A stretch of DNA of 64,000 bases. It comes from Rhizophagus irregularis. Lineage: Eukaryota. Position numbers and translations under genes: made by a program. The notes beneath the pieces are model-generated. The model was not told the DNA's origin. It worked only from the letters and a program-made list of their open reading frames with translations, and ran no database searches. Shown one piece after another: positions 14,597-57,500 of the stretch (within the stretch, counting starts at the first letter, position 1; every line of letters begins with the position of its first letter). The stretch covers positions 2,108,001 to 2,172,000 of the forward strand of contig NC_089431.1 of the NCBI RefSeq assembly GCF_026210795.1, given 5' to 3'.

Positions 14597-15672
14597 CTGC
14601 TTAATTCTAATTTAACTAATTTAGTATTAAGGTTTTAATTTAAAAATTAAGCAGTATCAAGGAAAATTCTTGCGAATTTTTCTTAATACTGCTTAATTCT
14701 AATTTGACTAATTTAGTATTAAGGCTTTAATTTAAAAATTAAGCAGTATCAAGGAAAATTCTTGCGAATTTTTCTTAATACTGCTTAATTCTAATTTAAC
14801 TAATTTAGTATTAAGGCTTTAATTTAAAAATTAAGCAGTATCAAGGAAAATTCTTGCGAATTTTTCTTAATACAGTCAACTCTCTTTATAGTCACACATT
14901 TGGGACTGTCCATATTTGGTGATTACAAAGAGATGTGACTATATAAAAAATTTCTTATATTTGTATATCATAATTCTGGCCAAAAATTAACATAATTTTA
15001 GCCAGAATTATACTTAAAACTTTATTGTATCGTAACTTCGCCAATATTAATCGTAGAGAGATGATCTTACCGCCATTCGATTCGTCTTGATGAGACGGTT
15101 CTAATGGTATAAAATACATCGAAATTCAATCACTAGATTAATTTCCAAAATTAAAAAAATATTAATGGTTTTTGTGTAATAACTCTGCCAATATTGATCC
15201 TAGAAAGACGATCTTACTACTATTCGATTCGTCTTGATGAGACGCATCTAATGGTATAAGATACATCGAAATCCAATCACTAGATCAATTTCCAAAATTA
15301 AAAAATATTAAATGGTTTTTAAGTAATAACTCCGTCAATATTGATCACAGAGAGATGAACTTACTACCATTCGATTCGTCTCGATGAGGCGATTCCAACG
15401 AGCTATAAATCGTCCTTTTACAATCACTAGGTACTGAGAAATCTAGCAAAATGTTAAATGGCGCAGTAAACGTAAATCAAGAAATATTATAATGCCAATG
15501 TTTAACATTTTGTTGAATAACTCGTCAGCCAGTGATCGGAAAAGGATAAAATTAACTCTCTCCCGTTCTGCTCACTTGACAATATTTACGAAAAAATAAA
15601 AAATTTTTTCGAAGTTTTTTATTACTTTTTCTTTATATTTTCTTTATTTTAGATAACTGCGACACTTTACAA

Positions 15673-17691
15673 ATGGCTAAAGATAACAAAAAGAAAGATA
15701 ACAAGTCTAACAAAGATACTACTTCTAAACGTCCTGCCTCTAGCTCTCCAACTGGCAACGTTTCTGGTCAAGGTTCCTCTATGTCTGGTCCTTCGAACAC
15801 TCCACCTTCGACCACCTCTACTAATAAACGTACCAGAATCAGTGCCGACGACTCTGTCATGGATGTTGATAAACCTCTCACGCCTCCTGGCCCTGTTGAG
15901 ACAACTTCCGTTGAGACACCTTCTCAACCTGATACCTCCTCTCTTGACGCTTCTCAACACGCACCTGCTAATAACAACGATAAAGGCAAAGGCCCTGATA
16001 TTACTCCCGCAGTTTCCTTCCCAGAACGTGCTGCCTCCCGGACGCGTCCCAAGGCTGCAGTACAATCTCAACCTACACTTTTACGCCTGGCGCTCCTAAT
16101 GACGTCGAAGATTTTTGGACTCACTTCGCTTCGAACCGCGACACGTGCGACGCGGTTGATCGACAACTTTCCTTGTTCCCCTCTTATGGTAGTCGTGCCA
16201 CGTGTAGTGGATCCAACGATTTGAAAAGGATCATCGTTCACTTCCGAAAAAAGGAAGATCTTGTCAAAGCCGTAGCTTCCCCTATGGATTCTTTGTTTAA
16301 CTTGCATTTCCATGCATATGACCCCCAGGCTATTAAAGCAGATGAACACGCGCGTACCCTGGTGGTTACCGACATCCCCCTTTTTATAACTGACGCTCTT
16401 TTGCGTGGTACCTTTTCCCGTTATGGCAATATTGTTCGCTGCCATACCCGTTTATCTAAACTTTATCGTACTGCATACATTACCTTTGAATCTACTGGTG
16501 CTTTACAGAACCTCGACTCTACCTGGGGCGTCCTTTGTGGAGGACATTGTTTGCGTATCTGCCCCGCTACTTTCTCACCTGAACAACGCGCTGAAAGACG
16601 CGCTTACGTTGCCTTACTTGCCGGTCTCCCGCGTGGTACTATAGCGGTCGATCTTGCTGAAATTGCCGATGAAATTTCCGCTAAATCTATCAATGTTCCC
16701 TTCTCTACGCGAATTCTTACAATCCCAAACCTTACGCCTATTGCCATTTTGCCTCTGAAACGGCTATGGAAAATGCTAAATCTATTTCATGTGCCCTCAA
16801 GAAAGTTGGCCTTACCTGGCATTCTCTGGATGAAGTCACCTCTCTTTGTCATCGGTGTGGTCGCCCTAATTGTAACCCTGATCGATGTGGTTCTTCATCT
16901 AGACCTAATACCCTCTCGCCATTGGCGAATCTAATGATAAATTACGTGCTTTATATAACAAGCATCTACCTCCTTCTCATCCCGCTAAACGACATAACCG
17001 TTTTGCCCGCCCCTGATAACAATAATGATGGACGCGCCCGTACAATGCTTCTCGCCATCGTTCTAAATCCAGACCTAATAACCGACAACAATCTCGTTCT
17101 CGTTCTCAACATCGACCATGGAATCGTGACAATCTTAACAACAACAATAATAATCAACGTCGTCGTATTCCTGATGCAAATGAACTTGATCACTATGCTG
17201 ATGGCATGGATGTTACATATCCTGCTCCTCCTACTGTGCTTACTGATTGGAAATCTATTGGTGTTGCTCTTGAAAAAGTAGTTGAAGATTTAGCCCTCCT
17301 TACCACACAATTTGCTACCATGAACAGCCGCATCACCAAATTGGAATCTGCTATGGCTGCTCGTGCTCCTGTTCCAGGACCTTTTGTCGCAAAACCACCT
17401 TCCTACATCCCTTCCTCTATGCAAGGATGGGATGATACAGTGAATCGAAATGATAATAATATCCTCGTTGATGTTAATTCTCCTCCTTTGCAATCAACAA
17501 GTGGTTTTTCCCCAATTCCCCATTTTGCTCCCATTCCACCTTCTAACGTTGCCCCTTCCTCTCCTATTGATATGGAACAGCGACTCTCCTCTCTTTCTGA
17601 CACTGTTGCCTCTTTGGCTGGCTCGATTAAAGAAGGAATCCAACAAAATAACCTCATCCTAGCTCGGAAACAAGGCCAGGCTAATCAATAA
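15673..17691 (+). pseudogene. LINE ORF1 (RRM-like domains, CX2CX4CX4C knuckle, coiled coil), frameshifted
   Basis: Overlapping fragments 15673-16224, 16173-16934 (RTLVVTDIPLFI...FSRYGNI), 16766-17281 (CHRCGRPNCNPDRC) and 17206-17691. Homologous to ORF1 at 43721-45373. Confidence 0.85.
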
Positions 17692-17739
17692 TTGTTGTCC
17701 TTTTTCCCCTTCTTTATTACCGTTTATCAGTGTGTAATA

Positions 17740-20700
17740 ATGATGGACAACAAAAAACATAATTTTTCTCCTCATCCCTCTCCCCTTATTAAATTTGGTC
17801 AATTGAATGTTAATGGTTTATGTTCTCCAGTTCGACAACAACATTTACTTAATTTTTTTCTTCACTCTTCCTTTGGTGCTTTATCTGTTAATGATACGCG
17901 TCTTTTCCCTTCAAATGCTAAATTTATTTTCAAAAACGAACACTCCCAACATCACTTTAAGTCCTATTGGGCTTGTTCATCTTCTTCTCGCCTTCATGAT
18001 GGTGTTGGTATTTTGTTACGTAATCCTCTTCATAAGCATGTCCAAACAATTGATCCGTGGAAAGGTCGACTTCTTAAATTAAATTTGTTTTTTCATCAAA
18101 CCAAAATCTCTATTATTTCTATATATTACCCTCCTTCTGGTTCTATTCATCGTTCTATTTATAATGATCTTATTACTAAACTCCTTTCCTGGCTTGATTA
18201 TGCCAGAAATAACAATTATTTTGTAATTATTCTTGGCGACTTTAATATTGATGAAATCGCTCATTCCCATTATTCATCTAATCATTTTAAGCTCCTTCGC
18301 TTGCTTTCTTCTCGGTTTTTTACCGATCATCAAGCTTACTCCTCTACAAATGGTCCTGATCTCACCTTCTTTCATGATAATGGATCTTCTAGACTGGATT
18401 ATATTTGGTCTTCACCTGGTTTTCCTGCACCTGGTCTTTTTTCGCAAGTGGTTACTTGCCCGGATCTCCTTGATCGTCCTTTTACAGATCACAAAGTTCT
18501 TACAACTATCTTTGACTTCAGTTCTTGCTTGGCTGTTTTGGCTAAATCTCGTCTCAAACAGAAAAAAGAAATGCGTACTATTTTTTCTTACGTTTCCACT
18601 TCAGTTGAACAATGGAATAATTTTACCACTGAAGTAGATGATTCTTTTGGAGTTTATTTAGATAGACAATATCACCCTAATTCTGATTTCTCCTTTCTTT
18701 CTCTTGATCGTATGTGGCATGCATTGAAAGCTGCCATAATTAGTGCTGCAATTGAAACTCTACCCTTTCAAAAAGTCTCCAATACACACTGACATTCATA
18801 CTCTCCTGAATTGACTAAACTTATTGCTATTAACAAATTTTTAGATCGATTTTTACATCGCCTTACTACTCGTCATTCTAATCGGCCTACTCAGATTGCG
18901 CAAATGACTGCTGCTTTGCCCTCCCATCTTGGAAATTTAGCATCCTTACTTCCTGATTATTCAGTTCCTACCTATTCTACATTCCCTGTATCTGTATTTA
19001 AATCATTTTTACGATCACAGAAGAATTTAGTTTCTGCTTTTTTATCTACTAAATTTGCCCAACACCTTACGGATTCAGTGGAATATTATACTGCACTACG
19101 TGACGAACACTTTTCGAACTCGCTTGGCACCTTTATAGATTCTGCCTTATCAGTAGAAAAACGCTCAATTGTTCTTGATCGTGTCCTGGTTGTACTGGAC
19201 TCAACTCCTACTTTACTAACGGATCCTTCGGACATTAAACAAGCAGCTATTTCTCATTTTCAATCGATTGTTTCTCCTCCGTTGGTCCGCTATTCTTCCA
19301 TCACTTCATTTCCCGCCCGATGGCAACAAGCTTACACTCCTCTTACAAATGTGTCTGCTTCATTATATGATCCTGTTTTGGCGCCTATTTCCCTACAAGA
19401 ATGGTCTGCTGTGATTTCCTCCATGCCAAATAACAAAGCTTCCGGCCCTTCAAAAATTTCTTATGAGATGATTAAACACTTGTCCGGTGAAGCCTTGGAA
19501 TTTTCTCTTTTACTTGCCAATACTTGCCTTTCTCGTGGTGATATTTCTGCTGACTGGCGTGAAGCCGTGGTTTATCCTATTTCTAAACCTCATGACTTTG
19601 ATGCTCAACTTAAGAACACTCGACCTATTACCCTTCTGGAAACAGTTCGAAAATGTGTAGTTAAGGTCGTCACGAATCGTCTTTCCAACATCCTTGCTGA
19701 TAATAAAATTCTCCAAGGTGGTAATTTTGCTGGTTTACCTGGTAGTTCTACGGATGTCCCTATTAAGATGCTGGATGCGATTATTCATCAACATAAACAT
19801 GACTCTACTGATGATCAGGAACTATGGATCGTTTCTCAAGATATCTCTAAAGCTTTCGATTCTATGGACTTAAATATGCTTAAATTAGCTTTAGATAGAT
19901 TACATATTCCTGCACTTTTAGTGCGATTTATTTTGAATCTTTTTACCCGACGAAATAATAAGATTATTACCTGTCATGGCGATACAGCTGCTTATAGAGT
20001 ACGTGTTGGTATCGATCAAGGAGAAATCATTTCCCCTCTTCTTTGGGTTATTTATCTGGATCCCTTACTTACTATTTTGAATCAAGATGAGATCCTTTTA
20101 TTTTAAATTCTTCAGCTCTTCTAAATTATTCTCCACTAGAATTTGAACAACATTCCTTACCAATTTCACATTTAACGTTTATGGATGATTCTACACTTAT
20201 TGCCTCTTCCAAGTCCGGAATAGAAGATCGTCTTTCTATTACTGCTGAATTTTATACTTTAAATAATGTTCAAGCCAATTCAGCAAAATATGTTCTTCTT
20301 TCATCTTCTTCGCCTTCTTCAAAGATTATTTTTGATCTTTTACTTTCTTCTTTAGTTTCCGATACTTCTCTCTCCCTTTCTTCTTTATCTCTTAATACTT
20401 TTTTCCGTTTCTTAGGAGTTTGGTTTTCCTTGTCTGCCTCTTCCGCTTTTGTTTTGAAACAAGCGCGCTCCATGGTCAAAGATATGGCTGCTCTTCTGGG
20501 CCCGAAGAAATTATTAGCTCAACATGTGGCCTATCTTTATAATGCTGTCCTTCTTCCGCGATTGGAATTCCGTCTTCAAACTACCCTTTTCTCTGAAAGT
20601 ACTATTCAATCAATAGTTAAACCTATGTTTTCAGTACTTCGAAGAAAAGCTGGACTTGCTGCGACTACTCCGTTGGCTTTGTTATTTCTTAAACTTCCTT

Positions 20701-23121
20701 TTTCGATTCAGAATGCTTTTTATCGATTCCTTTCTTCCCATATCGCATCTTGGCAAAAAATTTTCATTCACCCTGACTTCAAAGATTTTGCCCTCTATGC
20801 TATCTCCTATCTTCAAGGATATTTGGGTGCTGAGAGTTGCCTGACTACTATTGACTTAGAACCGTGGTCACAAGTCGTTTCTTTACGGACGCATACTTTG
20901 TTTAATTCATTATTATTTTCTTCGCGATTGAATATCACGTGGTCCCTCTCTTTCCGACCTCCGAGGCAGGACTTGCAACCAGCTTCGCCACTCCGAACCG
21001 TCTTACCGCATTCGATTTTTCAGACTGCTTGGAAACTTTGGAAAAATTTGAATCTTTTTGTCCTTGCTCAATTGGTTTCCCCTTGTGGACGATATCTTAT
21101 GAATTGGCTTGACCTTCGTTACCTTGGTATCGTTGGCCGTAAAGGACGGATTCCCACTTGGTTCAATTTTATTAAAAATAATTTTCTTTTTTCTCCTTCT
21201 TCTTCTTTATTGTTGCCTTTATATTTTATTAATTCTTCTTTTACTTTATCTTCCCCTTGTTTATTAGATCATACTGTTAAAGATTATTCCTTTTATCCTC
21301 AATGGGCTATTAATTTTAATGTCGCTACCCAAACTTTATCTGTGGGCCGTGTATGTATCACCTACAAGAAACAAGATTCTGCTATCATGTCCCATTGGCT
21401 TCCTGTATCTTCTTCCGCTGATGAACGATCTTATAATCCTTGTCCTGGATGTTCCTTTAATATCCCCGCCTTATCCAAGAAATCCGCAATTAAGCAACGC
21501 TGTAATAGCGAGAAGTGTTTTTTTAATGTAATCTTATCAGAAACCGTAGGCTATCCTACCAGAAATGCCAAAGTCTTTGCGGCCTACCTTCCGATTATTT
21601 TATCTACTTCGTGGAGTTATGCTACTTCTCTGGCTCTTGTTCATTTGTCAAAACCGTCTTTATCTACTTCTTCCACTCTCTCTTCTTCCTTAAAGGATAT
21701 GCCTGACGATGTTGTTTTACCACTTTCCGTGCAATCTCTGTATACTGATGGTTCTTTTCATGTTGCTACGGACTCTTCACCTGCTTCCATGACCTCTGCT
21801 TGGCTTGCCCTTGATGATGATGGACTTATTCTTGAATCTTCATCTTTGCAACTTTTTTCATGTCTTCCTTCAGCTTTGCGTTCTGAAATCTATGCTGTTG
21901 TATTAGGACTAAACGCTCTTTCTCGTGGCACTTCAATCTCCATTCATACTGATTGTAGTCAGCTTATCTCACTATGGAAACGCTTTGTTGATGTTCCTTT
22001 TTCACCAAAGTTGCTTCGAGAACATAATCATCTCCTTTGGCTTTCTATTCGATATCTCATTATGGATCGTGACCTTAAGGTTGATTTGATTAAAGTCCCT
22101 GCTCATGGCGATGACATCTATAATATGCAAGCGGATTCATTGGCAAAAGACGCTCATTCGCCTTCCCCACCTAATATTTCACCTTGGCATTTTGTTATGC
22201 TCCGTGCTTGTTATCATTTAATTCTTTGCCTATTGACATGAATATTCGTCATTTCCTCCGCTCTATAGCTGACGCTCGTGCTCTTTTATCTTTCTGTTCA
22301 TTGGCACGGTTTACTGCTCTTGGTTCCCTTCACTTTTTGATTGGGCTGGTATATATTTTTGCCTTTCACAAATTAAAGGTTTTGCTTCGCATAAGAATGG
22401 TCGTCCTGAATTCTGGATCTTCTGTATCAAACTCCTTTTGGATATGTTGCCTACTTTAACTACTCTTCAACAACGCAAACCTTATTTATATTCTCCCGAT
22501 TGGCTTTGTCCACAATGCAACTCAGCTCCTGAAGATTTGAATCATCTTTGAACTTGTCCTTATATTCTTCCAGATTTAAATCCGTGTTTGACACATCGTT
22601 CTGAAATTATCAAATTCAGAGATTCCTGCTTATCTTCGTTCTCATCTCTGAAACCTCTGGATATTACCTTCCAAACTGGATTCTCTGCTCTAGATTGTTG
22701 GAACTATGATACTCCTTCTTTGTCCTGTCTCTGGCTTACTCGAGGATTGTTGCCTGCGCATTTAACAGGTTTTTTAAACCAACACTTTCCTCTCTCTGTC
22801 ATATACAAGATTATTTCTCCTCTCCTTAATGACTTCCAAGTCGAATTGTATGGTGAAATTTGGCTGTGTCGGAATGTTCTTTTCCATGCTTGGGAAGAGT
22901 CGCAGGGTATCTCGGCTGCTTCTAAATTACGTGGCCCATCTATAAATTCTTCTCCTATTGTTCCTTCTCCACATACAAATAACTCTTCTTTGGCGACAGT
23001 TTCTCAGGATTCCTGGATTTCTTGGATATCCTCTTCTATAATTCAGGGTGGATCATGGATCTCACACTTGGATTTTCTGCGCCGCTTAACAGTTCAACCT
23101 CTTAGGATTTCTTTCTGGTAA
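17740..23121 (+). pseudogene. LINE ORF2 (APE endonuclease, RT, RNase H, Zn motif), disrupted
   Basis: NVNG, GDFN, RLDYIW, TDH; QDISKAFD, GIDQGEIISP, FMDD; YTDGS, RSE, HTD, KVPAH; CPQC. Stops at 18790-18792 and ~22549; frameshifts near 20090, 22180 and 22330. Confidence 0.92.
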
Positions 23122-23391
23122 CGGACTGGATTTTTGGATGTTGGATAGTTGACTCACACTGGCCTTCGGGTAAAGTTGGGGTATGCGATTCTGTAATAGT
23201 CTAGTTTTTCTTTGCTTTAATTTTATTTTAGTTTAGATTTCTTTACTTGTATGAATCGTGAAGCTACTCTTTTATTTTTATTAGTTTATTTTCTTATTTT
23301 TGTAATTTGTTCGTTTGAATTTTCGATGTTAAAATATAAATAAAAATAAAGTCATAAGACTGTTTGCAAAAGGAAAAGGATAAAATTACCA

Positions 23392-24377
23392 GGGTTGGTC
23401 ACCCTATCTCGGTGGTTAGTCACTGAGACCCTCATTAAGCCTGAGTATGGTGAGATCGCAGGTTCGATTCCTATAACCACGGAAATAAAAAGAATTTTAC
23501 TGCGGACGCTACAACCAATAGCGTGAAGGTACAGGGATTAGTGTAGTTGGACTGCATTATGGTGAATTAGTGTGTACGGTTAGGCTGCACATTTCAACTA
23601 AGGGCGGTCATGGTGTCCTTCTAACGTTCCCTATGAGGCCATTGGCATGTGCGCAGTCCTGTCCTTGAGGTCACTACTATACCTTGGGAGGGACTTCCTG
23701 TCCGGGTGGTCACTCTACGATACCGCTTGGGGCCGTAATAGCTAGATGGTCGTCCTAGATGGTAAAGCTGAGGGTGCAATGTCTTAGTGGTAGTTAGACC
23801 TTCTGTTAGGTCTTAGACCAACCAAGGTGTTCGTGCGAGAACAGGTAACGCATGGCTATGGGGTTCGGATTCCCTACTTCTTGGGTCCTGGTTGGTGATC
23901 CCTGGTGGTTGATACCCACCATAAGGGGTGATCCTGGACAGATGCCTGCTACTTCCTGTCCGAGTGGTCACTACAAAAGTATACCACTTGGGGTAAACAA
24001 CTGTACTATCGGTGCTAGGTAATCGCGGGCTGTAGTGGCCTTTGAGTGAGGCTTAGTACCAAATAAAATGGTGGTATGGAAGGGTACTAGATGGTTGATG
24101 TTACCTGTCGAAAGTCCTCCATGAAAGTAGATGCTCTCTAAAGGTCGTTAAATAAATTGAGTATCAGTATCATGCAATGGGTATAGGATGAGTAGGCGGC
24201 GTGTACTGCTTCGATCAGCCTAAATGGCCCGATGGGGGATGTCTTCTATAGTGGTGCTGTTACCTGAGGAATTAAGTACTCGGTTTAATGGTTGCCCATT
24301 GAAGATGATAGGACACAGACCCTGAACGATTAGTCTCATAAGAGGCAATGGGTGGTCTGGCCGTAAACACTTGCAAA
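23392..24377 (+). mobile_element. 986-bp non-coding SINE-like retroposon, highly structured
   Basis: GC-richer than its surroundings and ORF-free; 20-bp TSD GGAAAAGGATAAAATTACCA at 23372-23391 and 24378-24397; Pol III B-box-like GGTTCGATTCC at 23461-23471; many hairpins; ends TTGCAAA like the adjacent LINE. Confidence 0.75.
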
Positions 24378-27348
24378 GGAAAAGGATAAAATTACCACCA
24401 TTCGATTCGTCTCAGTGAGACGATTCTAACAAGCTATGATACATCTTTGTACGATTATTAGATGCCAAGTTATTTAATATATTCTTTATATAACTGTGAT
24501 TATAAACAGTTCTTTTTAATATAAGATTTTTGAGGATAGGTATGATAGTGACTATAGATAGATTGTGACTATATAGGATAGATTTTAATAATAAAGTGTT
24601 TTGAACATTCAACTGGTGTGACTATATAGTAGAATGTGACTATAACGGGAGTGACTATAGAAGGAGTTGACTGTACTGCTTATTGTGCTTAATTCTAATT
24701 TAACTAATTTAGTATTAAGGCTTTAATTTAAAAATTAAGCAGTATCAAGGAAAATTCTTGCGAATTTTTCTTAATACTGCTTATATCTGCCAATTCGTGA
24801 AATTAGCCAAACATAAAGATTTGCACATTTTAACAAGAATTATGTTTCACAAGCTTAAATTGTATGTGTTACATAATCAGATGATCTAAATCTATCAAAA
24901 AATAAAAAAAAATTTTTTAACGTTTATTCAAAAATAACAATGGCAACTACTTTCTTTTTCAATCACTTTTCAATCACTTTTCAATCAGATTTTTGTTAGG
25001 TGACTTAGAAAAGTTTATAGGCATATATAGCAGGTTTTTTTCAATCAGTAAGTAAGAAAACAAATATTAATAATTTTTATTAATTAGAAAAATCTTTTTT
25101 CATTTATTTTTAACCTTATTCCCTTCTTTTTTTTAGTAAAAATATATACAAAATAAAAATGTGAGTTATGATTTAGAGTTTTTGAGATGGTTTTTTTTGT
25201 TTTTTACTATACTCTACTTGTTAATTACTTTTTTAACTTGATTTTATTAATTTATTCAATTTAAAACAGAAATGGCAAATAAAAACTTGTTAAGTAAAGT
25301 AAAAAGAGCCCAATAATACCTGTAAAGATCATCTTTAGGTAAGAATTATAATTTTAAAAATTTTTGTGTCAGAGTTTTATTCAATTAACAAAATCGTTAA
25401 TATCTCGGCGTACATGTATGCTAAACACATATATTTATATTCATATGAAAGCCCAGAATCTACTCTACCTGAACGAAAAAAGATTATTCAAATCGAATTA
25501 CTAGATGTGAAGATATTAACGATCAAAGTCAAAGGTTAAAAATAAATATATTGAACGTAATTATTCAGCAACTTGTGATCCAATTCATGTGATATTTGGT
25601 TTATGGATAGCTCTTGATTACCTCTTTCTAATGAATATAAATTCATTCGTCTAGCATACATACACGTTAAGTTATTCAATATTTTGTCATGACAATTATA
25701 TTTAAATTTTTTAATTTTAATGATATTATTAAAAAAATCAAAAAATAATATAATCAAATCAATTTTATTTATATCAGCGGTGTGAATCTATCATTTTCAT
25801 GTAAATTGTATTAGCATTTTCTTAATAAAGTTAGTTTTTTGAATATAAAAACTTAATTCCATAAATCAGTCCATATGTTAATTCTAATTTAACTAATTTA
25901 GTAGTATTAAGGCTTTAATTTAAAAATTAAGCAGTATCAAGGAAAATTCTTGCAAATTTTTCTTAATACTGCTTAATTCTAATTTAACTAATTTAATATT
26001 AAAGCTTTAATTTAAAAATTAAGCAGTATCAAAGAAAATTCTCACAAAATTTTCTTAATTCTAATTTAGTTAATTTAGTATTAAGGCTTTAATTTAAAAA
26101 TTAAGCAGTATTAAGAAAAATTTTTACAAATTTTCTTATTAAAAAAAAGAACTTTTAAATTACTAATTAAACTTTAAAAACAATCTGTATGATTTAAATT
26201 TTAAAAAAATACTTCTGCTTTTTAATTTTCGCATTTCTACATTTAACCAATTAAAATTCAGCTGATCGCCGATCACATGCATTAATAACACGTTATTGTT
26301 TATTTTTTGTTTATTTTTTCAAAAATATTCTTTTCTCTTCTTTTTTTTAGAAAAAAAAGACAATAAAAATGAATACCAAAATTATTTTAACATATAATAA
26401 TAAAAATTAAATAAAAAACTTATTTTGATAATATATAATATATATATTTGTACCAAACTACTAATTATACAAAAAGTGATATGCTCGTATATCAATTAAC
26501 AATTACTTTCACTAATATCTCTCTGGAATTGTAATGGTGAATTTTAACAATATTAATTAAACAACTATATGTACACCGTTTTATGTTTTTATTTTTATAT
26601 TAATATTATATGTTAACATATATTAATTATATTTTTTTTTACTTTTATGTATTTTATTTAATTTTTTTAATATATTACTAACATTACTACTATCGTTTTA
26701 TTACTTTTTTATATCTAACTAATATATTAATAATATTACTAACTTTTTATTATTTCTTTTTTATATTTAAAATAATGATAATATTACTAATTAAATTTCT
26801 TTTTTTTTGTTTATATTTTGCTAATATTATTTTTTTTACAAATAGTATATTATTTTATACTAGTTTTTTATTTATATTATTTATAAAAAAATATTTGTAT
26901 ATTTAATATTATTTAATAAAAATTTTATTGATTATAAATGCATTTTAAATTCTGTTTGCAAATATAAAATATACAATTTAATTGAATAATATATACTATT
27001 TATCAGTACAAAATATGCAGTTTAAACTGGAAAAAAGTACTGTTTATCAGTATAAAATATACGGTTTATCCTGGAAAAGTATACTGTTCGCAATATAAAA
27101 TATAAAACAATATACTGTTTATTGGTATAAAACATACGGTTTTTCTACTGTTTACAAGTATAAAACATACGGGTGAAACTGGAAAAATATACTGTATGCA
27201 AACCGTATATATAATACGGTGTGCAGAATACCGAATATATACAGTATGTGAAAATACTGTAATTATATGGTAATAATACTATAAATATACTGTTCGCAAA
27301 ATACGAAAATACAGTATACTAACCGTATATATATTTTTTATAGGGATA

Positions 27349-29083
27349 AAACTTCAAGCCCGGAAAAATGTCCCATTCAACACATTGGTAATAGCTAAAT
27401 TCCTTGACATTTCAATGGCGATAGACCCGATTGATAGATCAACTTGGAGTATATCAGGAGGGAAAGAGCCGATATTAAAGTTCTTTAAACAATATCAGCT
27501 TACGAAGTATATATATAGTATTAACCAAAGCTCACATTACCCAATATTTTATATTGATCAATTATTTATTAGGGGAACATATCTTATGACATGGAAACAA
27601 TATCGTAGTTTAGCACTACTCCCGGTACAAGGAAGGACAGCTAGATGGTACTGTGATGTGGCCCATTTGTGCACATCAAGGACAGATAATTTAACAGTAA
27701 GCAATGATCTGGAGATTACGAAAGTTAACCATTGGGCCTTCTTATTAGATATTATACTGGATGCACGACGCAAACAAGTCATTTTTGTTAGAGAGCCTTT
27801 GGCTAATTCAGATGCATGGTTAATTGGCAAAGTCAACAAAATACATCATCATGAACAGGGGATTTCAGTGAACTATCGTCCAGGATACAATGATAATGGA
27901 ATAATTGGATGGCAGGACACCGGACGAGTTATACTGGCTCATTGCTGTAAGAGAGCAATTTTAGATAGAGTCTCTAATTCACATGGTTGGAGTTTTCCTA
28001 GTGAATGGTTATCTTCAACTCATCATCCTGACATTTTGTTACCCGGAGATAGATCACCAACATCAACGCCAAGTCCCATAATTAGCCTACCACTGGTTCA
28101 GGACATATGGATTCACAGATGGATAGATGATGATGACTTGAAATCAAAACTTACGGATATTAGAAATATATTAGAAGAGAGAACATCAGTAGAATATTAC
28201 ACAGATGGTTCGCTCAGGACAAGTATCCCTACATCAAGGGATAAACAGGATCCCAATTTAGTGTACACAAAAATGGGTGCAGCGTTCTGTGTCAATGATG
28301 AACCTGCCTTATCTGCCCAAGCAAATTTATCATTATGGCCCTCTTCTACACGTGCAGAACTAGTGGCTATTTTTCTGGCATTACTCATAGGTCCTATGAA
28401 TGCAAAAATTAAGATATATACAGACAGTCAAAGTGCCATCTATATGATAAATAATAGACATAATAAATCGGGTAGAAAATTACTGAAACAGTCTAATTCT
28501 TTAATTTTACTTTCTTTTACAGGAAAAAAAGATGGATCTAGTGTTAGTGAAAGTTAAGGGACACAGTGAAGATGTTATGAATGAAATGGTAGATAAATTA
28601 GCTAAAAACACAAGTAATGATAGTGGTTACTTTAACAACAGATTTAACTATAGCAATAGGAAAAACAGATCCCCATTGAATACAACTTAAGGAAATTTAT
28701 CAAAACTCTAATGAATACTAAAGTGGCAGCAGAATGGTCAATGCTAAAATCAAATGGGAACTTAATTCATAGATATAAAGGGTTTAATTGTATTTCAGTT
28801 AAAAAACATTGGCACTTAATATTTATTGTTAAACTATTTGCTAAACTTCTTCCTATAGGTACTATTCTTCTACAGCGAAAACCAAATCTATACAAAGAGT
28901 TTGTCTGTCCAAGGTGCTAACAAAGAAGAAAACAGACATCATTTCATTGAATGTGAGGCCAATAAGGACTTATGGCCTATAATCAAAAGCAGAATGCAAA
29001 ATGATATGATTTCCATAATTCAAAAATAGAGTAATACAACAGAGGATACACCTAAGATTATAAATAAGAAATTAAACCAGATA
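27349..29083 (+). pseudogene. Old LINE ORF2, linker and RNase H part
   Basis: ORF 27385-28557 (YYTDGS, SSTRAEL, IYTDSQ), frameshifted KVKGHS, and ORF 28711-28920 ending CPRC. Confidence 0.85.
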
Positions 29084-29360
29084 CACTGGTCAAAAACTAG
29101 GCAAACGTGGCATAGTAGCCTTTATCTTTATTAAATTTATTCGAACTTTACAATTTACAAAAAAAAATAAAAAGAAAATATAAAAATAAAACTAACTAAA
29201 AACAAAGCTATATAGTTTCCTAAGAAAAAATAAAGTAAAAAAAATTAATCTAAAAAAAAGAAAAATCGCATTACACTAAATTTCCCCAGATCTTCCCCCT
29301 TGATATATTCCAACCAAAGTAGAAGCAACTATGCTAACAAAATAACGAATAGCGCGCCCA

Positions 29361-34988: not shown

Positions 34989-35038
34989 TAAAACACAATG
35001 ATATAAACAGTCGGAGAGTTAAAATTTGAAGAAAGAAA

Positions 35039-43200: not shown

Positions 43201-43250
43201 TAAAACACAATGATATAAACAGTCGGGGAGTTAAAATTTGAAGAAAGAAA

Positions 43251-45373
43251 TTAATTGGAAGAAGCCGAATCAGCTTGTTCCAGGGGAGCGCCACCAAGGG
43301 AGCCAATGAATTGCTTGATATGACCAGTAAGTTGGTCCAATTTACTTTCAATAGCGACACGACTATTTTTGAGATCATTAATTTCTTCTTGTGTGGAGGA
43401 GATGGGAGTAAAAGGAGGAGCATTTGGAGAAAGGTGAGAAGAAGGAGGTGATGTGTCAGGAACAACAGTGAATGTAGGCGAAGGTCGCATTAAAATACTT
43501 TTGGGAGGCAGCGAAGATTTAGCGGAAGACAGAATATTAAGAGGAACATGAGTTACAGGGGCATCTTCTTGCATGAGGTCCGGTTCAGGTTCATCGGGTA
43601 TAGGGAGTGGATCAAGGCCAAGGTGTGATTCAATACGAGTCATCCGTTGGTCAGCAAGTTCAAGAGCGGAGATGCGTTTGTGAAAGTTAGCAACTTCACA
43701 TTGTAATTCTCGTAAAAGGTTTAGAATGTTGTTAGCATCATCAGGAGATAATGCAGAGTTAGGAGTTTGTCGGGGTAAGGGACGTGCTGTAGAACGAGAG
43801 GAGGAGGAAAGGAGACAGATCGTTCTTTACTATTATGGCGGGCACGTTGAGAAGTATTGGGAGGGGGTTTGTTATGATTACTATTAACATCATTAGTGCG
43901 GTCATGGGAAGCGTTATTGGCTCGTCCAGAATTGGAAGCAGATCGATCTTTAGATTTGGAGCGAGATCGAGAGCGAGAGCGTGCATTGGCAATATTAGAA
44001 TTGGAGCGAGGTTGATTAACATTGAATCGTTCTTTGAGTTTTGCAACAGGGTCGCGAGTGCGGCTTCTACCTCTGGTTTGTTTGAGTGGGCAAAAATTAG
44101 GAGCACAACCTAGTTTGCCACATCTGTGACAAAGTTTATTAGTATTATCGGGGGAGGACCAGAAAAGCACTTTGCCTTGGAAGCTAACAGTCTGTTCCAT
44201 AGCAGCATCCATGGTTTCTTGGGAGTTGAAGGTGACATAGGCCCATCTTTTGGGTTTGTAGGAATTTAAAGAAAGAGGAACATTGACAGCTTTTGCACCA
44301 AGATCGCGTGTAAGAGGAGCCAAGTTGATATCCTTAACATTGGGAGGAAGTTGAGTGAGGGTGGCAACGTATTGACGGCGCGCAGCCTTTTGATCCACAG
44401 TATAGAAACATGGAGTAATTCGGAGACAGGTGGAGAAACAGTAAACAGCCCATTGGTCGGTAAAACGAGCAATTGAATCGGCGTGATCATACACAATACG
44501 GGCTTGCTGGACTTTAGCATTAGGCCTGGAGAAGAGGCGACAAGAGGTAATATTACCAAATTTTTTGAAATAGGCCATGAGGTTGTCCTTTTTGATAAAG
44601 AAAGGGATATCGGTAACTTGGATAGCCCGGAGATCTTCATTGGATCGGAGTTGGCGAGGGTCATGGGCATGAAAAATCAAGTCAGGGAACTCAGGATGAG
44701 AGGAACCAACGCACAGTTCGCGTGCTTCAGCGGTATGGAAGTGGATAACGAGGCGTTTAGCCTCACCAGAACCTGTCATACGAGCTTTTCCAGTGAATGA
44801 CTCGTACGTTTCTAAGAAAAGGTTATTCACAGCCTCAATAAGGGCTTTATTGGTAGGGAATTTCTTGAGTGATTCAGGGGCAGCATTCGGCGCAGCCGCA
44901 GCCTGAAAATCATCTCTGGTTATGGCAAAGGTCACCACTGGATCTGGGGTTTGATCGCCATCAGGAGCACCACTAGTATCCAAATTGGGCGACGCGTTAG
45001 GGGGTTGTTGCAAGTCTTTGTTTGAAGGTGCATGCATGGACGCGTCCACATTTCCAGAAGACGCGACGTGACTGGGCGCAGTTGGCGCAGCAGATTTTTT
45101 CAGGGAGGAGGCCAAAGTATTTTCGCCAGAGATATTTTGTTGAGGAGAAGAGGAAGGTCCATCTACTCCAACGTCAGCCGTCTGGTCATCGGCAACGTAG
45201 TCTTCTTCCATAGAATTTTCGGTAATCGTACGATTACGTTTCTGCTGGATAGTGTTTTCACCATCGGAGCTTGAATTATCGGAGTTGTTATTATTTTTTT
45301 GTTCTTGACGGGAAGCTTTCCTACTGTTAGGGTTATGACTTCCACGGCCTCTCTTGGCATAGTTACCAGACAT
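43251..45373 (-). CDS. LINE ORF1 (~707 aa consensus; RRM-like domains, CX2CX4CX4C knuckle, RS-rich tract, coiled coil) with a single 1-bp frameshift near 43810
   Basis: ORFs 43721-45373 and 43251-43643 fuse into one frame (…PNSALSPDDANNILNLLRELQ…MTRIESH) if the base present in copy A is restored. The indel could be a sequencing error. Confidence 0.85.
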
Positions 45374-46530
45374 AGTAGAGGGCTTTGAGTTGGGAATATA
45401 TAAAATATAAAATATTTATTAGTAGCTAGTATTATTTTTTTAAAAATAATAAAAATTATTTTCGTCGAAAATTTTCGTTATTGAAAAATTCAGGAGAGAG
45501 TTACTGGTCAAAAACTAATATATTAGGTAGCAGATATGTATCAGATATGTACCTGATATGTGTAGTATTAATGCTGAAAATCGGGTACCTGATATGTGTA
45601 AGATATGTGTAAATATATATATCGTCTATATATCATTTACATATCATATACATATCAGTACCTGATATGTATATGATATATATATTTACACATATCTTAC
45701 ACATATCAGGTACCCGATTTTCAGCATTAATACTACACATATCAGGTACATATCTGATTAGTTTTTGACCAGTGATACTAGGAACACAACATGATGATAA
45801 AAAATTTTTTGATTTTTGCTCACTGGCCTTGGAAGCTAAGATTGACACTAATTTTTCCAAAATATCAAAACAAATATTTGGATTCTCAGAGTCAAAAAAC
45901 ATTTTATTTTTGGCATCACTTTTGGATTCCTTCATCATGCACTTTAAGGAACTAATTTGGTTGCCTAGATGTAATACTACTAATGCATGGGAAAAGGCTA
46001 AAAATATTGGAAAAAAGACAAATTAAATGAATCTGAAAATATGGATCGTTATTTTAAATCCCCTCATCAACAGATCAAGCAATTAAAACAGAATAAACAA
46101 CAATCAAAGAAGAATAATATAACAAATTCACAGGAAGATCAAATGGTAGAGTTTAGTGATACATCATTGGAATTGGATTCAGTACAGCTTAAAAACTTAA
46201 AAAATGAAAATCTCATATTATCAAAATGCTATATATAATTGATTTAGCAACAGTATAATTAAACTTAAATTGGAGTTATACATAAATTTACCAAATTTGA
46301 AAGGAAAAAGGGAGGGAAAAAAAAAATAATAATAATAATAATATTTATAATAATAACAACAATTTCTATAATATAATCAATAGACATAATATTAATTATT
46401 TTTATAATCAATAGATACAACACTAATTATTTTTTATTCTATATTTATTCTTATCCATATTTTGATGATTGCATCCTACTGGGTGGATATAGCTTATGAT
46501 AATTTGTTTGTATGGTATATAAACTACATA

Positions 46531-51466: not shown

Positions 51467-51488
51467 TTTTCAATCATATCCTTAAAAC

Positions 51489-53030
51489 TAGGGTTCCGAT
51501 CGGTTTTGGTAATTACCGAACCAAACCAATTGGTTTTGGTATCGGAACAGTTTTGGTATTCTGATTTACCGAACTGAACCTTTCAGTAAATTTACCGATC
51601 AGTTTCAGTAATTTCAGTTTCGGTATCAGTTTTGCGATTTACTGAACCGAATTACTGAACTGATACTTTTAGTATCAGTTTCGGTAAATTTTACTGAACT
51701 GATTTACTGAACTTTTCACGTTGCGAATGTATTTTGACAGGCAATTTATTTTTATAAACGTAATTTATTTTGATAAATAATGTAATTTGTTTATGATATT
51801 AAAGCCATTTTTTATTAGTATTAAATTAAATTTTATTAAAATTTGATTAGACCTACAAAAAAAGTAAAAGAACGTTAATAAACATTTTTACATAAAGAAA
51901 AATTAAAAAATCGCTTCTCCCCTTTGAAAATACTTACCACCGGTCTCTATTTCCGGATTCCAGGCTAAAATCTACAAAAAAAAGTAGTAAAAGAACGTTA
52001 ATAAACGTTCTTGCATAAATAAAATAAAAAACCCCCCATTTCCCCTTTTTAAAAATACTCACCAGTCCCTATTTGAGTTCTGGGTTGAAATCTACAAAAA
52101 AATAGAAATAAAAGAACGTTAATAAGCGTTCTTACATAAAAAAAAATTAAAAAATTGCTTCTCCCCTTTGAAAATACTTACCACCGGTCTCTATTTCCAG
52201 ATTCCAGGCTAAAATCTACAGTAAAAGAATGTTAATAAACGTTCTTGCATAAATAAAATAAAAAAACCTATTTCCCCTTTTTAAAAATACTCACCAGTCC
52301 CCATTTGAATTCCGGGCTGAAATCTACAAAAAAAATAGAAATAAAAGAACGTTAATAAATGTTCTTACATAAAGAAAAATTAAAAAATCGCTTCTCCCCT
52401 TTGAAAATACTCACCACCGGTCTTTATTTCCAGATTCCAGGCTAAAATCTACAAAAAAAAGTAGTAAAAGAATGTTAATAAACGTTCTTGCATAAATAAA
52501 ATAAAAAAAACCCAACTTCCCTTTTTTAAAAATACTCACCAGTTCCCATTTGAGTTCCAGGCCGAAATCTACAAAAAAATAGAAATAAAAGAACATTAAT
52601 AAACGTTCTTATATAAAGAAAGATTAAAAAGTCCGCTTCCCCCCTTTGAAAATACTCACCACCGGTCTCTAGGCTGAAATCTACAAAAAAAAAGTAAAAG
52701 AATGTTAATAAATGTTCTTACATAAAGAAAAACAAAAAAATCTCCTCCTGCTTTCCCCTTTAAAAACACTTACTGATCCTCATTTTCAAGCTTCTAGGCT
52801 GAAATCTACAAAAAGGAAAAAAGTAAAAGAACGTTAATAAACGTTCTTACATAAGAAAATCCCAAAAAAACTCGCTTCCTCCTTTTAAAAATACTCACCA
52901 GTCTCCATTTTCAAGTTCCGGCCGAAATCTATAAAAAAAAGGAAGTAAAAGAATGTTAATAAACATTCTTACATAAAAAAAACAAAAAAAAATTAATTTT
53001 GGAGACACTTATCTGTCTCCATTTCCAAGA
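51489..53030. mobile_element. Probable hAT-type MITE; left end and internal array only
   Basis: Starts TAGGGTTCCGATCGG, followed by dense CCGAAC/ACTGAAC subterminal repeats and then a tandem array. No matching right TIR was found. Confidence 0.5.
51850..53030. repeat. ~120-bp tandem repeat with an alternating two-monomer (~240-bp) higher-order unit
   Basis: Each monomer has the hairpin AAGAACGTT-AATA-AACGTTCTT and AAATACTCACCA; two variants alternate. Confidence 0.9.
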
Positions 53031-53454
53031 ATAAAAAAAAGAATTTTTTTTTTAAAAAAAAAATTTGCCGTAATTATGTAGATCGGCCAATCAAGTGTGT
53101 GATACATTGAACAGCCGCACCCATGCAGATCGGCAATTAATTTATTTAAAAAAATGTTTCGTAACGTTTTTATGATAATTTAATAAAAGATCTTTTACTA
53201 AAATTCCTATAAAATTTTGATCACAGCAGTTTTTAATATCTAAGCATATGAGTGATGGTCAGTTAGATCCCTTTCTTATCTTTTCCCATTTCTTGTATTT
53301 TTCTTTTATGGTTGGTGGTATTGAAGATCAAAGTAAAACCTAATCCAACTGTTTCCAAGTAGCAGTGCATTTGGAATTAAAGAAAGTTCAATATTTTTTA
53401 GATTAATTTTGAGTGGTGTCATTATTAGAGTCTTCATTTATAATTATTGGGCAT

Positions 53455-54299
53455 TTTTATTATTAAATTTATTTATTTATTTTTGTTAAAGTGCATCCAG
53501 CACTAGGAGCTTAAATCCCTTGCCACCAGACCTCATCCTTGGATAAAGAGTAGAGCTATACCTACGCCGCCTAGTCTAACCCATATGCACTGGGTAAAAA
53601 TAAAGGAATCAACTACCTCTATAGCCAACGGGCATATAGAGAAAATAAAATATAAAAAATTCTGCAGCTAAGAATGCACTATATTCTAATTAATAATTAA
53701 TTTACGTAATAAAGTTAAAAATCTCTGCTAAAATCTCATTGTTACCTTTATTACACCCTTACTCTTTGAGAAATTCTTTGCCTTCTTCTGAGAATTTGGG
53801 TTCATCAACTGGTTATTATTCTTAGCAGCTTTGGTCGAGGACTTCTTATCCTTTTTCTTAGGCTGATTACTATTCGAACTTTGTCCAGTACCACCAGACT
53901 TCTTGTTCGGAATATTTTTAGCCTTCAACATGTGCTGTTTCTTCAAGATAGGAACGGAGTGTTGACACCATTTCAACTCTTTATTAGTAATAAGGAAAAC
54001 TTGAGGAATATCTAAGGCCTTGAGTGTGGCCTCCCAATTCTCAAAATAGCCTACAAGTTTCCTCTTTCCTTTGCTTGTTTGTATAATTTTAAACGTGCTA
54101 GCACCACACATTGTTAAAAATGTTGTTAGTTTACAGCTTAGAACTTTTCACGTTGTTTTCTTTCTCGTAAAGTCCAACTTGCGGGAAACTATCTTACAGG
54201 TATACCTTCCAGGTCAGTCATCCAGAACTTGTTAAATTGGAGAAGGGTAAATGAGTTCAAAACTATTTTGACTCTAAGAGTCTGATATTTGTATATATA
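53455..54299 (-). mobile_element. 3' part of a second ORF1-only retroposon, interrupted by the pogo-like MITE
   Basis: ORF 53728-54111 (CGASTFKIIQTSKGKRKLVGYFENWE...KWCQHS) is homologous to 3779-4190. A short UTR and (TAAA)n tail follow. Confidence 0.65.
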
Positions 54300-54301
54300 T
54301 A

Positions 54302-54597
54302 CAGTCAACTCCCTCTATAGTCACTCCCGTTATAGTCACATTCTACTATATAGTCACACCAGTTGAATGTTCAAAACACTTTATTATTAAAATCTATCCT
54401 ATATAGTCACAATCTATCTATAGTCACTATCACACCTATCCTCAAAAATCTTATATTAAAAAGAACCGTTTATAATCACAGTTATATAAAGAATATATTA
54501 AATAACTTGGCATCTAATAATCGTACAAAGATCTATCATAGCTTGTTAGAATCGTCTCACTGAGACGAATCGAATGGTGGTAGTTTTATCCTTTTCC
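54302..54597 (-). mobile_element. Arm of a second copy of the pogo-like MITE; the other arm is presumably beyond the window
   Basis: TA|CAGTCAACTCCCTCTATAGTCAC; reverse complement of 24378-24673 with 5 substitutions by manual count. Confidence 0.92.
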
Positions 54598-57500
54598 TGT
54601 GCAAACAGTCTTTTGACTTTATCTTTTATTTATATTTAACTTTTGAAAATACAATTGAACAATATTACAAAAATAAGAAAATAAACTAATAAAAAATAAA
54701 AGAGTAGCTTCACGACTCATACAAGTAAAGAAATCTAAACTAAAATAATATTAAAGCAAAGAAAAACTAAACTATTACAGAATCGCATACCCCAACTTTA
54801 CCCGAAGGCCAGTGTGAGTCAACTATCCAACTTCCAAAAATCCAGCCTGTTACCAGAAAGAAATCTTAAGAGGTTGAACTGTTAAGCGGCGCAGAAAATC
54901 CAAGTGCGAGATCATGATCCACCCCGAATTATAGAAGAGGATATCCAAGAAATCCAGGAATTCTGAGAAACTATCGCCAAAGAAGAGTTGTGAAATTGTG
55001 AAGAAATAGTAATAGATGAAGATTGCGAAGATGGGCCACGTAATTTGGAAGCAGCCGAGATACCTTGTGACTCTTCCCAAGCATGGAAAAAAACATTCCG
55101 ACATAACCAAATTTCATTAAGAAGAGGAGAAATAGTTTTGTAGATAACAGAGAGAGGAAAATACTGCTTCAGAAATGTCGTTAAATGCGCAGTTTACAAT
55201 CCTCTAGTGAGCCAAAGACAGGACGGAGAAGGGTATCGTAGTCCCAACAATCTAAAGTAGAGAATCCAGTTTGGAAAGAAATATCCAAGGACTTCAAGGA
55301 CAAGAACGAAGATAAGCAGGAGTCTCTAAATTTAATAACTTCAGAACGATGTGTTAAACATGGATTGAGATCAGGTAGGATATAAAGACAAGTCCAAAGA
55401 TGGTTCAAGTCTTCAGGAGCAGAGTTGCATTGCGGACAAAACCAATCCAGAGAATACAAATGAGGCATGCGTCGTTGTAAAGTAGTCAAAGTAGGCAACA
55501 TATCCAAGAGAAGTTTGATACAGAAGATCCAGAATTCAGGATGACCATTTTTATGCGAAGCGAAACCTTTAATCTGCAAAAGGCAAAAATGTATACCGGC
55601 CCAGTCAAAGAGTGCAGGGGAGCTAAGTGCAGTAAATCGCGCCATAGAGCAAAATGACAAAAGAGCACGAGCATCCACTATGGAGCGTAGGAAATGACGA
55701 ATATTCATGTCAATAGGCAAAGAATTAAAAGTCAATAGACATGGAGCATGACAGAACGTCAAAGGTGAAAAGGTAGGTTGTAAAGATGAATGAGCATCTT
55801 TGGCCAGAAAATCCGCTTGTATATTGTAGATGTCATCGCCATGAGCAGGGACTTTAATCAAATCGATTTTAAGATTACGATCCATAATAAGTTGTCGAAT
55901 AGAAAGCCAAAGAAGATGAAGCATCAACAAAGCGTGCCCATAGCGAGATTAGCTGACTACAATCAGAACGCAAGGCTGAAGGAAAGCATGAAGGGAGGCA
56001 CAAAGATGAAGAGTCAGGTATAAATTCATTATCATCAAGAGCAAGCCAAGCAGAAGTCATAGAAGGAGGAGAAGAGTCCTTAGCAGAAAAGAATGAACCA
56101 TCGGTATACATGGTATGCACAGAAAGAGGTAAAGCATCATCTTCTATCCTTGTTGTGGAAGGAGAGGAAAGGGCGGAGGAAGCAGGCTATGACAATTTTG
56201 TCAAATGTACAAGGGCCAAAGAAGTAGCATAACTCCATGAAGTAGATAAAGTTATAGGAAGATAAGCCGCAAATACTTTAGCATTTCTGGTAGGATAACC
56301 CACCGTTTCAGATAAACTGACATTGAAAAAACATTTTTCACTATTACAGCGCTGTTTAATTGCAGATTTCTTGGATAGAGCAGGTATATTAAAAGAACAA
56401 CCAGGGCAAGGATTATAGGATAGTTTATCGGCCAGAGTAAATACAGTAAGCCAATGAGACATGATAGCAGAATTTTGTTTCTTGTAGGTGATACACACAT
56501 GACTAACAGATAAAGTTTGAGTGGCAGAATTAAAATTAATAGCCCATTGAGGATAAAAATGATAATCTTTAACAGTATGATCTAATAAACAAGGTGAAGC
56601 TAAAGTAAAAGAAGAATTAATAAAATACAAAGGCAAAAATAAAGAAGAAAAAGAAGAAGAAAGAAAATTATTTTTAATAAAATTAAACCAAATAGGGATT
56701 TGTCCTTTACGGCCAACGATACCAAGGTACCGAAGATCAGACCAATTCATAAGATAACGTCCACAAGGGGAAGCCAGAATTTTTCCAGAGTTTTCAAGCA
56801 GTCTGAAAAATCGAATGTGGTAAAATGGATCGAAGCAGCAGAGCTGATTGTAGATCCCACCTCGTAGGTCAAAAAGGAAGGGACCACGTGATATTCAATC
56901 ATGAAGAGAATAGAATTGAATTAAATAAAATATGTGTTCGAAGAGAAATAACTTGAGACCATGGTTCCAAGCTAATAGTAGTCAGGCAGCTTTCAGCGCC
57001 CAAAAATCCTTGAAGATAAGAAATAGCATAAAAGGCAAAATTCCTGAAATCAGGATGTGTAAATATTTTTGCCAAGATGCAATGTGGGAAGAGAGGAACC
57101 GATAAAAGGCATTTTAAATCGAAAACAGAAGTTTAAGGAATAACAAAGCCAATGGAGTAGTAGTAGCAAGTCCAGCTTTTTTCCGTAAAACTGAGAACAT
57201 GGTATTTTCTGAAAAAAGAGTAGTTTGCAAACGAAATTCCAATCTCGGGAGAAGAACAGCATTATAGAGATAGGCCACATGTTGCGCCAATAACTTTTTT
57301 GGACCAAGAAGAGCAGCCATATCTTTAACCATAGAGCACGCTTGTTCAAGTACAAATTGGGAAGAAGCAGATAAAGAAAACCAAACACCTAAAAAGCGGA
57401 ATGAAGTATTCAAAGCTAAAGAAGAAAGAGAAAGAGAAGTTACTGTAACCAAAGAAGAGGTAAAAGATCAAAAATAATATTCGATGAAGGGGAGGAAGAT

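Follow-up and report, generated by a model that had tools for sequence, protein, structure and literature searches.

The analysis presented here covers one 64-kb window of the Rhizophagus irregularis genome (the whole stretch of DNA under study, to whose coordinates all positions refer) and concerns a set of long interspersed nuclear elements (LINEs) that lie inside miniature inverted-repeat transposable elements (MITEs). Two members of one LINE family (family 1), LINE A and LINE B, are found in two copies of the same MITE, MITE A and MITE B, and in MITE A the LINE is accompanied by a 987-bp non-coding element. Two further LINEs, belonging to a related family (family 2), are found in a second MITE. 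The features of the family-1 loci, in which ORF denotes an open reading frame, APE the apurinic/apyrimidinic-type endonuclease, RT the reverse transcriptase and TIR a terminal inverted repeat, are as follows.

14873-24673: MITE A as a whole, a TA-flanked TIR element whose ends read CAGTCAACTC...
14873-15537, plus strand: left arm of MITE A, a non-autonomous TIR element, with left TIR CAGTCAACTCTCTTTATAGTCACAC and TA at 14871-14872
15538-15554, plus strand: target copy 1 (GGAAAAGGATAAAATTA), located by motif scan and reading, which forms the target-site duplication on the 5′ side of LINE A
15555-23371, plus strand: LINE A, full length at 7817 bp, without poly(A)
~15673-16934, plus strand: ORF1 of LINE A, with an RRM, frameshifted
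17692-~23121, plus strand: ORF2 of LINE A, with APE, RT and RNase H domains, one premature stop and at least one frameshift
23372-23388, plus strand: target copy 2, common to LINE A (as its 3′ duplication) and the 987-bp element (as its 5′ duplication)
23391-24377, plus strand: the 987-bp non-coding element, 48% G+C, terminating in CACTTGCAAA, between target copies 2 and 3
24378-24394, plus strand: target copy 3, the start of the right arm of MITE A
24378-24673, plus strand: right arm of MITE A, followed by the TA duplication at 24674-24675
54302-54597, minus strand: right arm of MITE B with its target copy (GGAAAAGGATAAAACTA), bounded by TA at 54300-54301 and then unrelated flank
54598-64000, minus strand: LINE B, heavily decayed, with its 3′ end at 54598 and its 5′ part running off the window

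In two MITE copies at different loci, the 3′ ends of both family-1 LINEs directly abut the sequence GGAAAAGGATAAAA(T/C)TA: LINE A ends at 23371 with the target adjoining at 23372 on the plus strand, and LINE B ends at 54598 with the target adjoining at 54597 on the minus strand. The 19-mer GGAAAAGGATAAAAYTACC, scanned for with up to two mismatches, has four sites in the window: those at 23372 and 24378, one at 15538 that carries a single mismatch, and a minus-strand site at 54579-54597; it occurred in 0 of 100 shuffles. Within copy A the 17-bp target is present three times, in the order target, LINE, target, 987-bp element, target, which brings the insertion events at this one site in family 1 to three. 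If the start of the LINE is taken as ACTCTCTCC, as in family 2, full-length LINE A is bracketed by a perfect 17-bp duplication of GGAAAAGGATAAAATTA. Two LINEs and a third, non-coding element therefore share the same position and the same orientation in the two copies, and independent copies at the same nucleotide with a target-site duplication, which typify the target-specific class of APE-type LINEs, are found in family 1 and likewise in family 2 (see below).

The host of family 1 is flanked by TA on both sides in copy A and on the visible side in copy B, and its left and right TIRs in copy A agree at 21 of 25 positions by direct reading; TA duplication and TIRs together fit a non-autonomous element of the Tc1/mariner superfamily. 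The more specific label "pogo-like", which would draw solely on the TA duplication and the CAGT-type inverted repeats, is not established, and no transposase partner for either copy was found within the window. Three 147-bp internal repeats occur in the left arm of MITE A (15022-15462). The MITE has four related internal repeats in all, and the target is present in the fourth only; the three paralogous repeats have a different sequence at the equivalent place and bear no insertion. MITE A is hosted by a 92-bp satellite, the intact units of which read CTTAATACTGCTTA at the insertion point and thereby supply the reconstructed empty site. Both MITE copies in the window (2/2) are filled, with no empty copy seen there. 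The arm of MITE B (54302-54597) shows 5 mismatches in 296 positions (98.3% identity) with 24378-24673, and is unlike the sequence right after LINE A, where the 987-bp element (23391-24377) intervenes. The left arm of MITE B and the 5′ end of LINE B lie beyond base 64000, and the comparison is thus of one arm. The flanks of the two MITE copies differ. At this level the statements of the first-pass annotation hold up: it had both family-1 LINEs ending directly before the target (borne out by the junctions at 23371/23372 and 54598/54597), the MITE arms differing at 5 of ~296 positions (the partner on the A side being the segment past the 987-bp element), and only the target-bearing one of four related internal repeats being occupied, which is the fourth.

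Repeat sequence also makes up the flank of MITE B, where 54015-54133 and 54196-54292 are 86-89% identical to 4071-4189 and 5985-6081, and the latter copy, the other one in the window, is split by a 50-bp satellite. Satellite arrays occupy 551-1462, 4530-5759, 11136-12176, 13373-14872 together with 24676-26144, and 51853-53032, with units of ~81, 50, 185, 92 and 120 bp; it is in the 92-bp array that MITE A sits.

Both LINE families possess an ORF1 with an RRM and an ORF2 that combines an APE-type endonuclease, an RT and an RNase H domain. Pfam searches recovered Exo_endo_phos/Exo_endo_phos_2 and RVT_1 in both, confirming the presence of APE and RT, as well as RNase_H with E = 7.6e-11 in family 2 and 9.4e-7 in LINE A; in the family-2 protein the DEDHD-type motifs of RNase H are directly readable (FTDGS, SRAEAAAI, YTDSQ, KAHSG and NDFADSLA). 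The ORF2 products of the two families are 37% identical to each other, and every one of the nearest database proteins (84-95% identity) carries the name Rhizophagus irregularis. Members of both families start with ACTCTCTCC and end in ...GTTTGC plus a few bases without a poly(A) tail, and neither a poly(A) signal nor a tail is visible at the 3′ ends of LINE A and LINE B. The family-1 ORF2 reaches ~23121 by tblastn, which leaves a 3′ untranslated region (UTR) of ~250 nt ending TGTTTGCAAAA. The middle of this UTR is conserved and includes a 50-nt block that is identical in LINE A and LINE B, a pattern from which we infer a stringent LINE, one whose recognition depends on the 3′ UTR. In the stretch of LINE B that aligns with the ORF2 of LINE A there are 12 premature stops; several frame-breaking indels add to the decay. 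Nested within it, and evident as a 3217-nt alignment gap, is a 3.2-kb hAT-type DNA transposon (57762-60978, plus strand) with Pfam matches to DUF659 and the hAT dimerisation domain. The hAT transposon is broken into several ORFs.

The relationship between the two LINEs stands apart from that between their hosts. Measured per 250 nt, the identity of LINE A and LINE B is 81-90% over most of ORF2, with a single value of 73%, and the ORF2s differ by ~15%; in the C-terminal region of ORF1 identity is 55-66%, and over the last ~220 nt it is 94% overall. The last 120 nt of the LINEs are 87% identical (16 of 124 columns non-matching) and abut the 98.3%-identical arm, and the two differ strongly in divergence (16/124 vs 5/296, Fisher p = 8e-6), as do ORF2 and the arm (Fisher p = 9e-14). 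This abrupt change of identity at the LINE/target junction argues against a conversion tract that ends inside the LINE. In three ORF2 segments the ratio of non-synonymous to synonymous divergence (dN/dS) between LINE A and LINE B is 0.208, 0.115 and 0.151, with dS of 0.47, 0.44 and 0.61, while off-frame controls in the other two frames of the same comparison give 0.87-1.76. Such low dN/dS at high dS implies that most of the LINE divergence arose under selection, as working elements, and not in the wake of a composite's duplication. Further copies in the genome lie nearer to LINE A than LINE B does: P0005 is 94% identical to LINE A and 79% to LINE B, and P0043 92% and 80%, respectively. It had been noted at first pass that the LINEs are far more diverged than the MITE arms (81-90% in ORF2 against 98.3%) and that the C-termini of ORF1 barely align (55-66%), both of which agree with these figures; the accompanying preference for independent insertion over composite duplication is supported by the dN/dS values, the step at the junction, the differing flanks, the third element and family 2.

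Two mutational sources were rejected as the origin of the LINE divergence. Hypermutation resembling repeat-induced point mutation would explain at most a small excess on LINE B, the A-to-B spectrum being near symmetric (C>T 205 vs T>C 167; G>A 93 vs A>G 83), and decay of CpG fails likewise, as CpG-type changes make up 67 of the 636 ORF2 differences.

The 987-bp element has no ORF of at least 100 aa and no match to LINE proteins. A tRNA or known RNA head was considered and could not be confirmed: ARAGORN predicted 0 genes and Rfam returned 0 matches at the gathering score, with only a chance-level match at E up to 1. Its predicted fold is mildly better than that of shuffles (z = -2.4), and GGTTCGATTCC-like motifs resembling a B box can be discerned by eye only. 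The tail that it has in common with the LINE is limited to TTGCAAA and the nearby TCATAAGA. Taken with its position between two target copies, its features make it a likely non-autonomous retroposon mobilised by the LINE machinery. Two motifs like GGTTCG(A/G)ATTCC also occur in this G+C-rich element, together with a 22-nt internal repeat spaced by 258 nt.

Family 2 presents a comparable arrangement in a different host, with the following features.

37313-45501, minus strand: F2-1, an intact family-2 LINE, with ORF1 of 550 aa and ORF2 of 1875 aa
29098-37278, minus strand: F2-2, a family-2 LINE with intact ORF2 (1875 aa), head-to-tail with F2-1
45502-45774: body of the second MITE, palindromic, ~270 bp, with CACTGGTCAAAAAC termini in inverted repeat

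F2-1 is flanked by GTTTTTGACCAGT at 45503-45515 and 37300-37312, and F2-2 by GTTTTTGACCAGT at 37280-37292 and 29085-29097, such that four 13-bp copies bracket the two tandem LINEs; GTTTTTGACCAGT is at the same time the terminal repeat of the second MITE. This MITE has the termini CACTGGTCAAAAAC...GTTTTTGACCAGTG (CACTG...CAGTG), with 101-nt arms that are 95% complementary, and a 3-bp duplication, ATA, at 29081-29083 and 45775-45777, its other terminus (29084-29097) being split from the body by the two LINEs. It thus displays both CACT(A/G) termini and a 3-bp duplication, which we take to be the defining traits of CACTA/CMC-type MITEs. Alignment of the two LINEs over 8193 columns shows 96 differences (1.2%). 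The codon differences in their ORF2s comprise 31 synonymous and 23 non-synonymous changes, against an expected synonymous share of 23% (p = 4e-8), and this excess of synonymous differences points to two insertions from slightly different active sources as opposed to a tandem duplication. Continued activity of family 2 is probable. In F2-1, ORF1 combines the RRM with a C-x2-C-x4-C-x4-C knuckle. Between the two target copies at the tandem junction lie seven extra bases, AGTAGTG on the sense strand (37293-37299), which are probably an untemplated or template-jump addition at a 5′ junction. Counted from the first ATG, the ORF1 of the downstream copy is the shorter (493 vs 550 aa). The window thus records five events, involving two related LINE families, two defined sites and two MITEs. 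LINE fragments of at least two further families are present at 8596-10010 and 27385-28624 (plus strand) and comprise an RT piece with ~32% identity to family 2 as well as an ORF that bears RNase H. Just downstream of that ORF (27385-28624) come the second MITE and the family-2 LINEs.

These observations are best read as site-specific, target-primed retrotransposition into MITEs, for which we put the probability at roughly three in four. The APE-type endonuclease of family 1 would likely nick one specific sequence inside a Tc1/mariner-like MITE, and each new copy would then be made by target-primed reverse transcription at the same base. The bottom strand would be nicked opposite the boundary between GATC and GGAAAA, and LINE RNA ending ...TTTGCAAAA, without poly(A), would be copied from the 3′ OH at the nick. 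A cut of the top strand ~17 bp downstream might follow, and it is proposed that an offset of this size regenerates the target on both sides and thereby allows tandem re-insertion. The specificity might be carried by the APE domain itself, in preference to RNA pairing or another DNA-binding domain, and the 987-bp element would have been mobilised in trans.

Several points weigh against this reading. No evidence singles out the protein domain that reads the target, the role given to APE being inferred; the family-1 sample consists of two LINEs and one non-autonomous element in one 64-kb window; and of MITE B the window holds one arm, with the 5′ junction and the duplication of LINE B lying beyond it. 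A further difficulty concerns age. In a simple simulation the 12 stops of LINE B need ~8% neutral divergence, while the divergence of the arm is 1.7% (95% interval 0.6-3.9%), so that LINE B looks older than the arm that it adjoins. C-to-T or G-to-A changes account for nine of the 12 stops (CGA to TGA in four cases), and when amino-acid changes are polarised with family 2, 47 fall on LINE B and 20 on LINE A, with 145 undecidable, which bounds the decay of LINE B at roughly 4%. The C-to-T bias and the polarised changes soften the tension and do not remove it. Any of three things could close the gap: a C-to-T-biased process, mobilisation in trans of a LINE already defective by then, or homogenisation of the arm. 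The argument from dN/dS is unaffected by it.

Alternatively, the LINEs might have a loose preference, for instance for AT-rich or bendable stretches or for open chromatin at MITEs, with the shared position representing a hot spot. Related preferences do vary in strength, as those of Tx1-Mar and SINEU in the figures given in PMC4494074 span from weak (13-23%) to strong (90%), and in family 1 the specificity is seen here in two LINEs and the 987-bp element of a single window. However, a loose preference sits poorly with the repeated use of one nucleotide per family, for three events in family 1 and for two in family 2, with the three paralogous internal repeats that are unoccupied, and with duplications as precise as 17 bp and 13 bp, and we regard it as unlikely. 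Only slightly more doubtful is a scenario in which the LINE-bearing MITE was moved as a unit by a MITE transposase and one of the LINEs was later overwritten by gene conversion from a diverged relative. Identity that is graded, falling from 98.3% (arm) through 94% (conserved part of the 3′ UTR) to ~85% (ORF2), is what this might leave behind, and the decay of LINE B, which seems to exceed the divergence of the arm, would also be accommodated. Yet a conversion tract should end within the shared LINE, and the last 120 nt are at 87% with the step to 98% falling exactly at the junction; moreover, the scenario needs an extra event over nearly 8 kb and leaves both the 987-bp element at this site and the family-2 tandem pair unaccounted for.

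A different possibility is that the arm beside LINE B is no MITE copy at all, having been carried there by 3′ transduction, i.e. read-through from a source copy that resided in a MITE. Read-through transcription is common in LINEs, and the family-1 LINEs have no visible poly(A) signal or tail. Against this, the homology stops exactly at the TIR of the MITE and is followed by TA, and the arm is far closer to arm A than the adjoining LINE 3′ end is to LINE A, which makes transduction a very improbable source. Lastly, duplication of a MITE plus LINE composite followed by neutral decay of both parts, to which the same position and same orientation would lend themselves, can be practically dismissed given dN/dS of 0.12-0.21 and dS of ~0.5 against an arm divergence of 1.7%, and given the differing flanks of the two copies.

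LINEs homing into other transposons are a textbook case of a "safe harbour" strategy. Targeted insertion into MITEs might be part of a wider picture, in which Rhizophagus would harbour a radiation of RNase H-bearing L1/Tx1-like LINEs, each family dedicated to a different MITE site, with at least one (family 2) intact and presumably active, and with non-autonomous retroposons riding on the same targeting. The result would be a three-level nested parasitism, of an element resembling a short interspersed nuclear element (SINE) on a LINE on a MITE, either parallel to or anciently shared with that of animal Tx1, and in this genome, roughly half of which is repeats, a safe harbour would keep LINE activity confined. 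We offer this larger scenario tentatively, as standing a little short of an even chance. Other sequence collections were searched as well: of 588 candidate stretches in a protein-guided scan of metagenomes, 1 proved to be a locus, on a contig of 1449 bp that has a relative at 43% identity and no flanks; full-length relatives of 26-32% identity were recovered on metagenome and Logan contigs of 5.6-9.4 kb; and exact-pattern scans for the conserved block of the LINE 3′ UTR and for the MITE target returned 0 loci in viral contigs and 0 in metagenome contigs.

The documented cases of LINEs inserting into transposons that were found in the literature are animal elements of the Tx1 clade. An RNase H-bearing counterpart in a fungus, if true, would imply that the strategy is much older than thought or has arisen again. 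Two related endonucleases, from ORF2s that are 37% identical, with two defined targets would likewise form a natural pair for studying how APE reads sequence, and such a counterpart would help in accounting for the tolerance of R. irregularis towards active LINEs. In annotating this genome, tandem arrays of LINEs and composites of a LINE within a MITE should be taken for serial targeted insertions and not for duplications.

With regard to clade placement, the APE profile matches L1 endonuclease structures (E 1e-9 to 1e-6) as well as L1 ORF2p structures; the same search of structures, taken to E up to 1, brought up no endonuclease of R1 or TRAS. A sequence search of the PDB matched L1 and R2 reverse transcriptases and L1 endonucleases only, too small a reference set to build a phylogeny on. 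Among the nearest Atlas clusters, one bears the automatic name "Transposon TX1 ...", and NCBI applies the equally automatic label "jockey-like" to some relatives. To our knowledge the Tx1 clade is without an RNase H domain, and in this respect families 1 and 2 depart from it; they also depart from its restriction to animals, their closest proteins all being from R. irregularis. Their domain order of APE, RT and RNase H is also the one expected in the I group/Tad1 clade, a candidate placement besides Tx1/L1. The R1 clade (among others R1, TRAS and SART) is similarly reminiscent of them in uniting an APE endonuclease, an RNase H domain downstream of the RT and strict target sequences; the targets of that clade, unlike those described here, are ribosomal DNA, telomeric repeats or microsatellites in arthropods. 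In the available text of Kojima and Jurka (2015, PMC4640811) the target-specific APE clades are Tx1 and R1, and the RNase H-bearing clades are the I group, plant L1, Proto1 and Dualen, Tx1 not being among those named.

A curated transposable element library of R. irregularis includes LINE/L1-Tx1 (Oliveira et al. 2024, PMC11075540). It comes from the same organism and might contain the same elements, the entry as seen there giving the class only. The terms "site-specific", "nested" and "Tad1" have 0 occurrences in the main text of that paper. Full-text searches of the literature, and PMC13465315, yielded no description of any fungal LINE that targets a MITE, RNase H-bearing or otherwise, with Repbase reports and subscription journals falling outside this scope.

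The closest functional parallels come from animals, where the Tx1 clade is found and is often target-specific according to the portions seen of Kojima (2015, PMC4494074). In Xenopus laevis, Tx1L and Tx2L insert into the non-autonomous elements Tx1D and Tx2D (Christensen et al. 2000, via PMC4494074 and PMC6719617), and Tx1/Tx1d is cited by Cosby et al. (2019, PMC6719617) as an example of transposable elements targeting transposable elements. This precedent, already invoked in the first-pass annotation, is apt: as in R. irregularis, an APE-type LINE occupies a fixed site in a non-autonomous DNA transposon, and each family has its own target. The host of Tx1L is, however, an animal, and its target Tx1D is classed by Kojima as piggyBac-derived (PMC4494074), whereas here a glomeromycotan fungus, an RNase H domain and TA-flanked and CACTG-ended MITEs are involved. 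In crocodilians, Tx1-Mar LINEs and SINEU SINEs insert into Mariner-N4_AMi with a 16-bp duplication, tandem copies sandwiching the duplication, while Tx1-9_AMi inserts into Harbinger elements, and the documentation is genome-wide, with 313 of 347 copies of SINEU-3 in the target (PMC4494074). As described there, the crocodilian system shares with the present one a mariner-type target, a duplication of nearly the same length (16 bp there, 17 bp here), tandem insertions that sandwich it, a non-autonomous retroposon at the same site and sister families that use other transposons. In contrast, its families are old, decayed and animal, with a genome-wide record, as against five events in one window; here, moreover, the setting is fungal, the LINEs carry RNase H and both ORF2s of family 2 have stayed intact. 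Thus, as far as this analogy extends, the behaviour of the R. irregularis LINEs matches that of Tx1-Mar closely, while the host and the RNase H domain do not; the targeting of DNA transposons by LINEs, already known for the animal Tx1 clade, is here met in a new kingdom and with a different set of domains.

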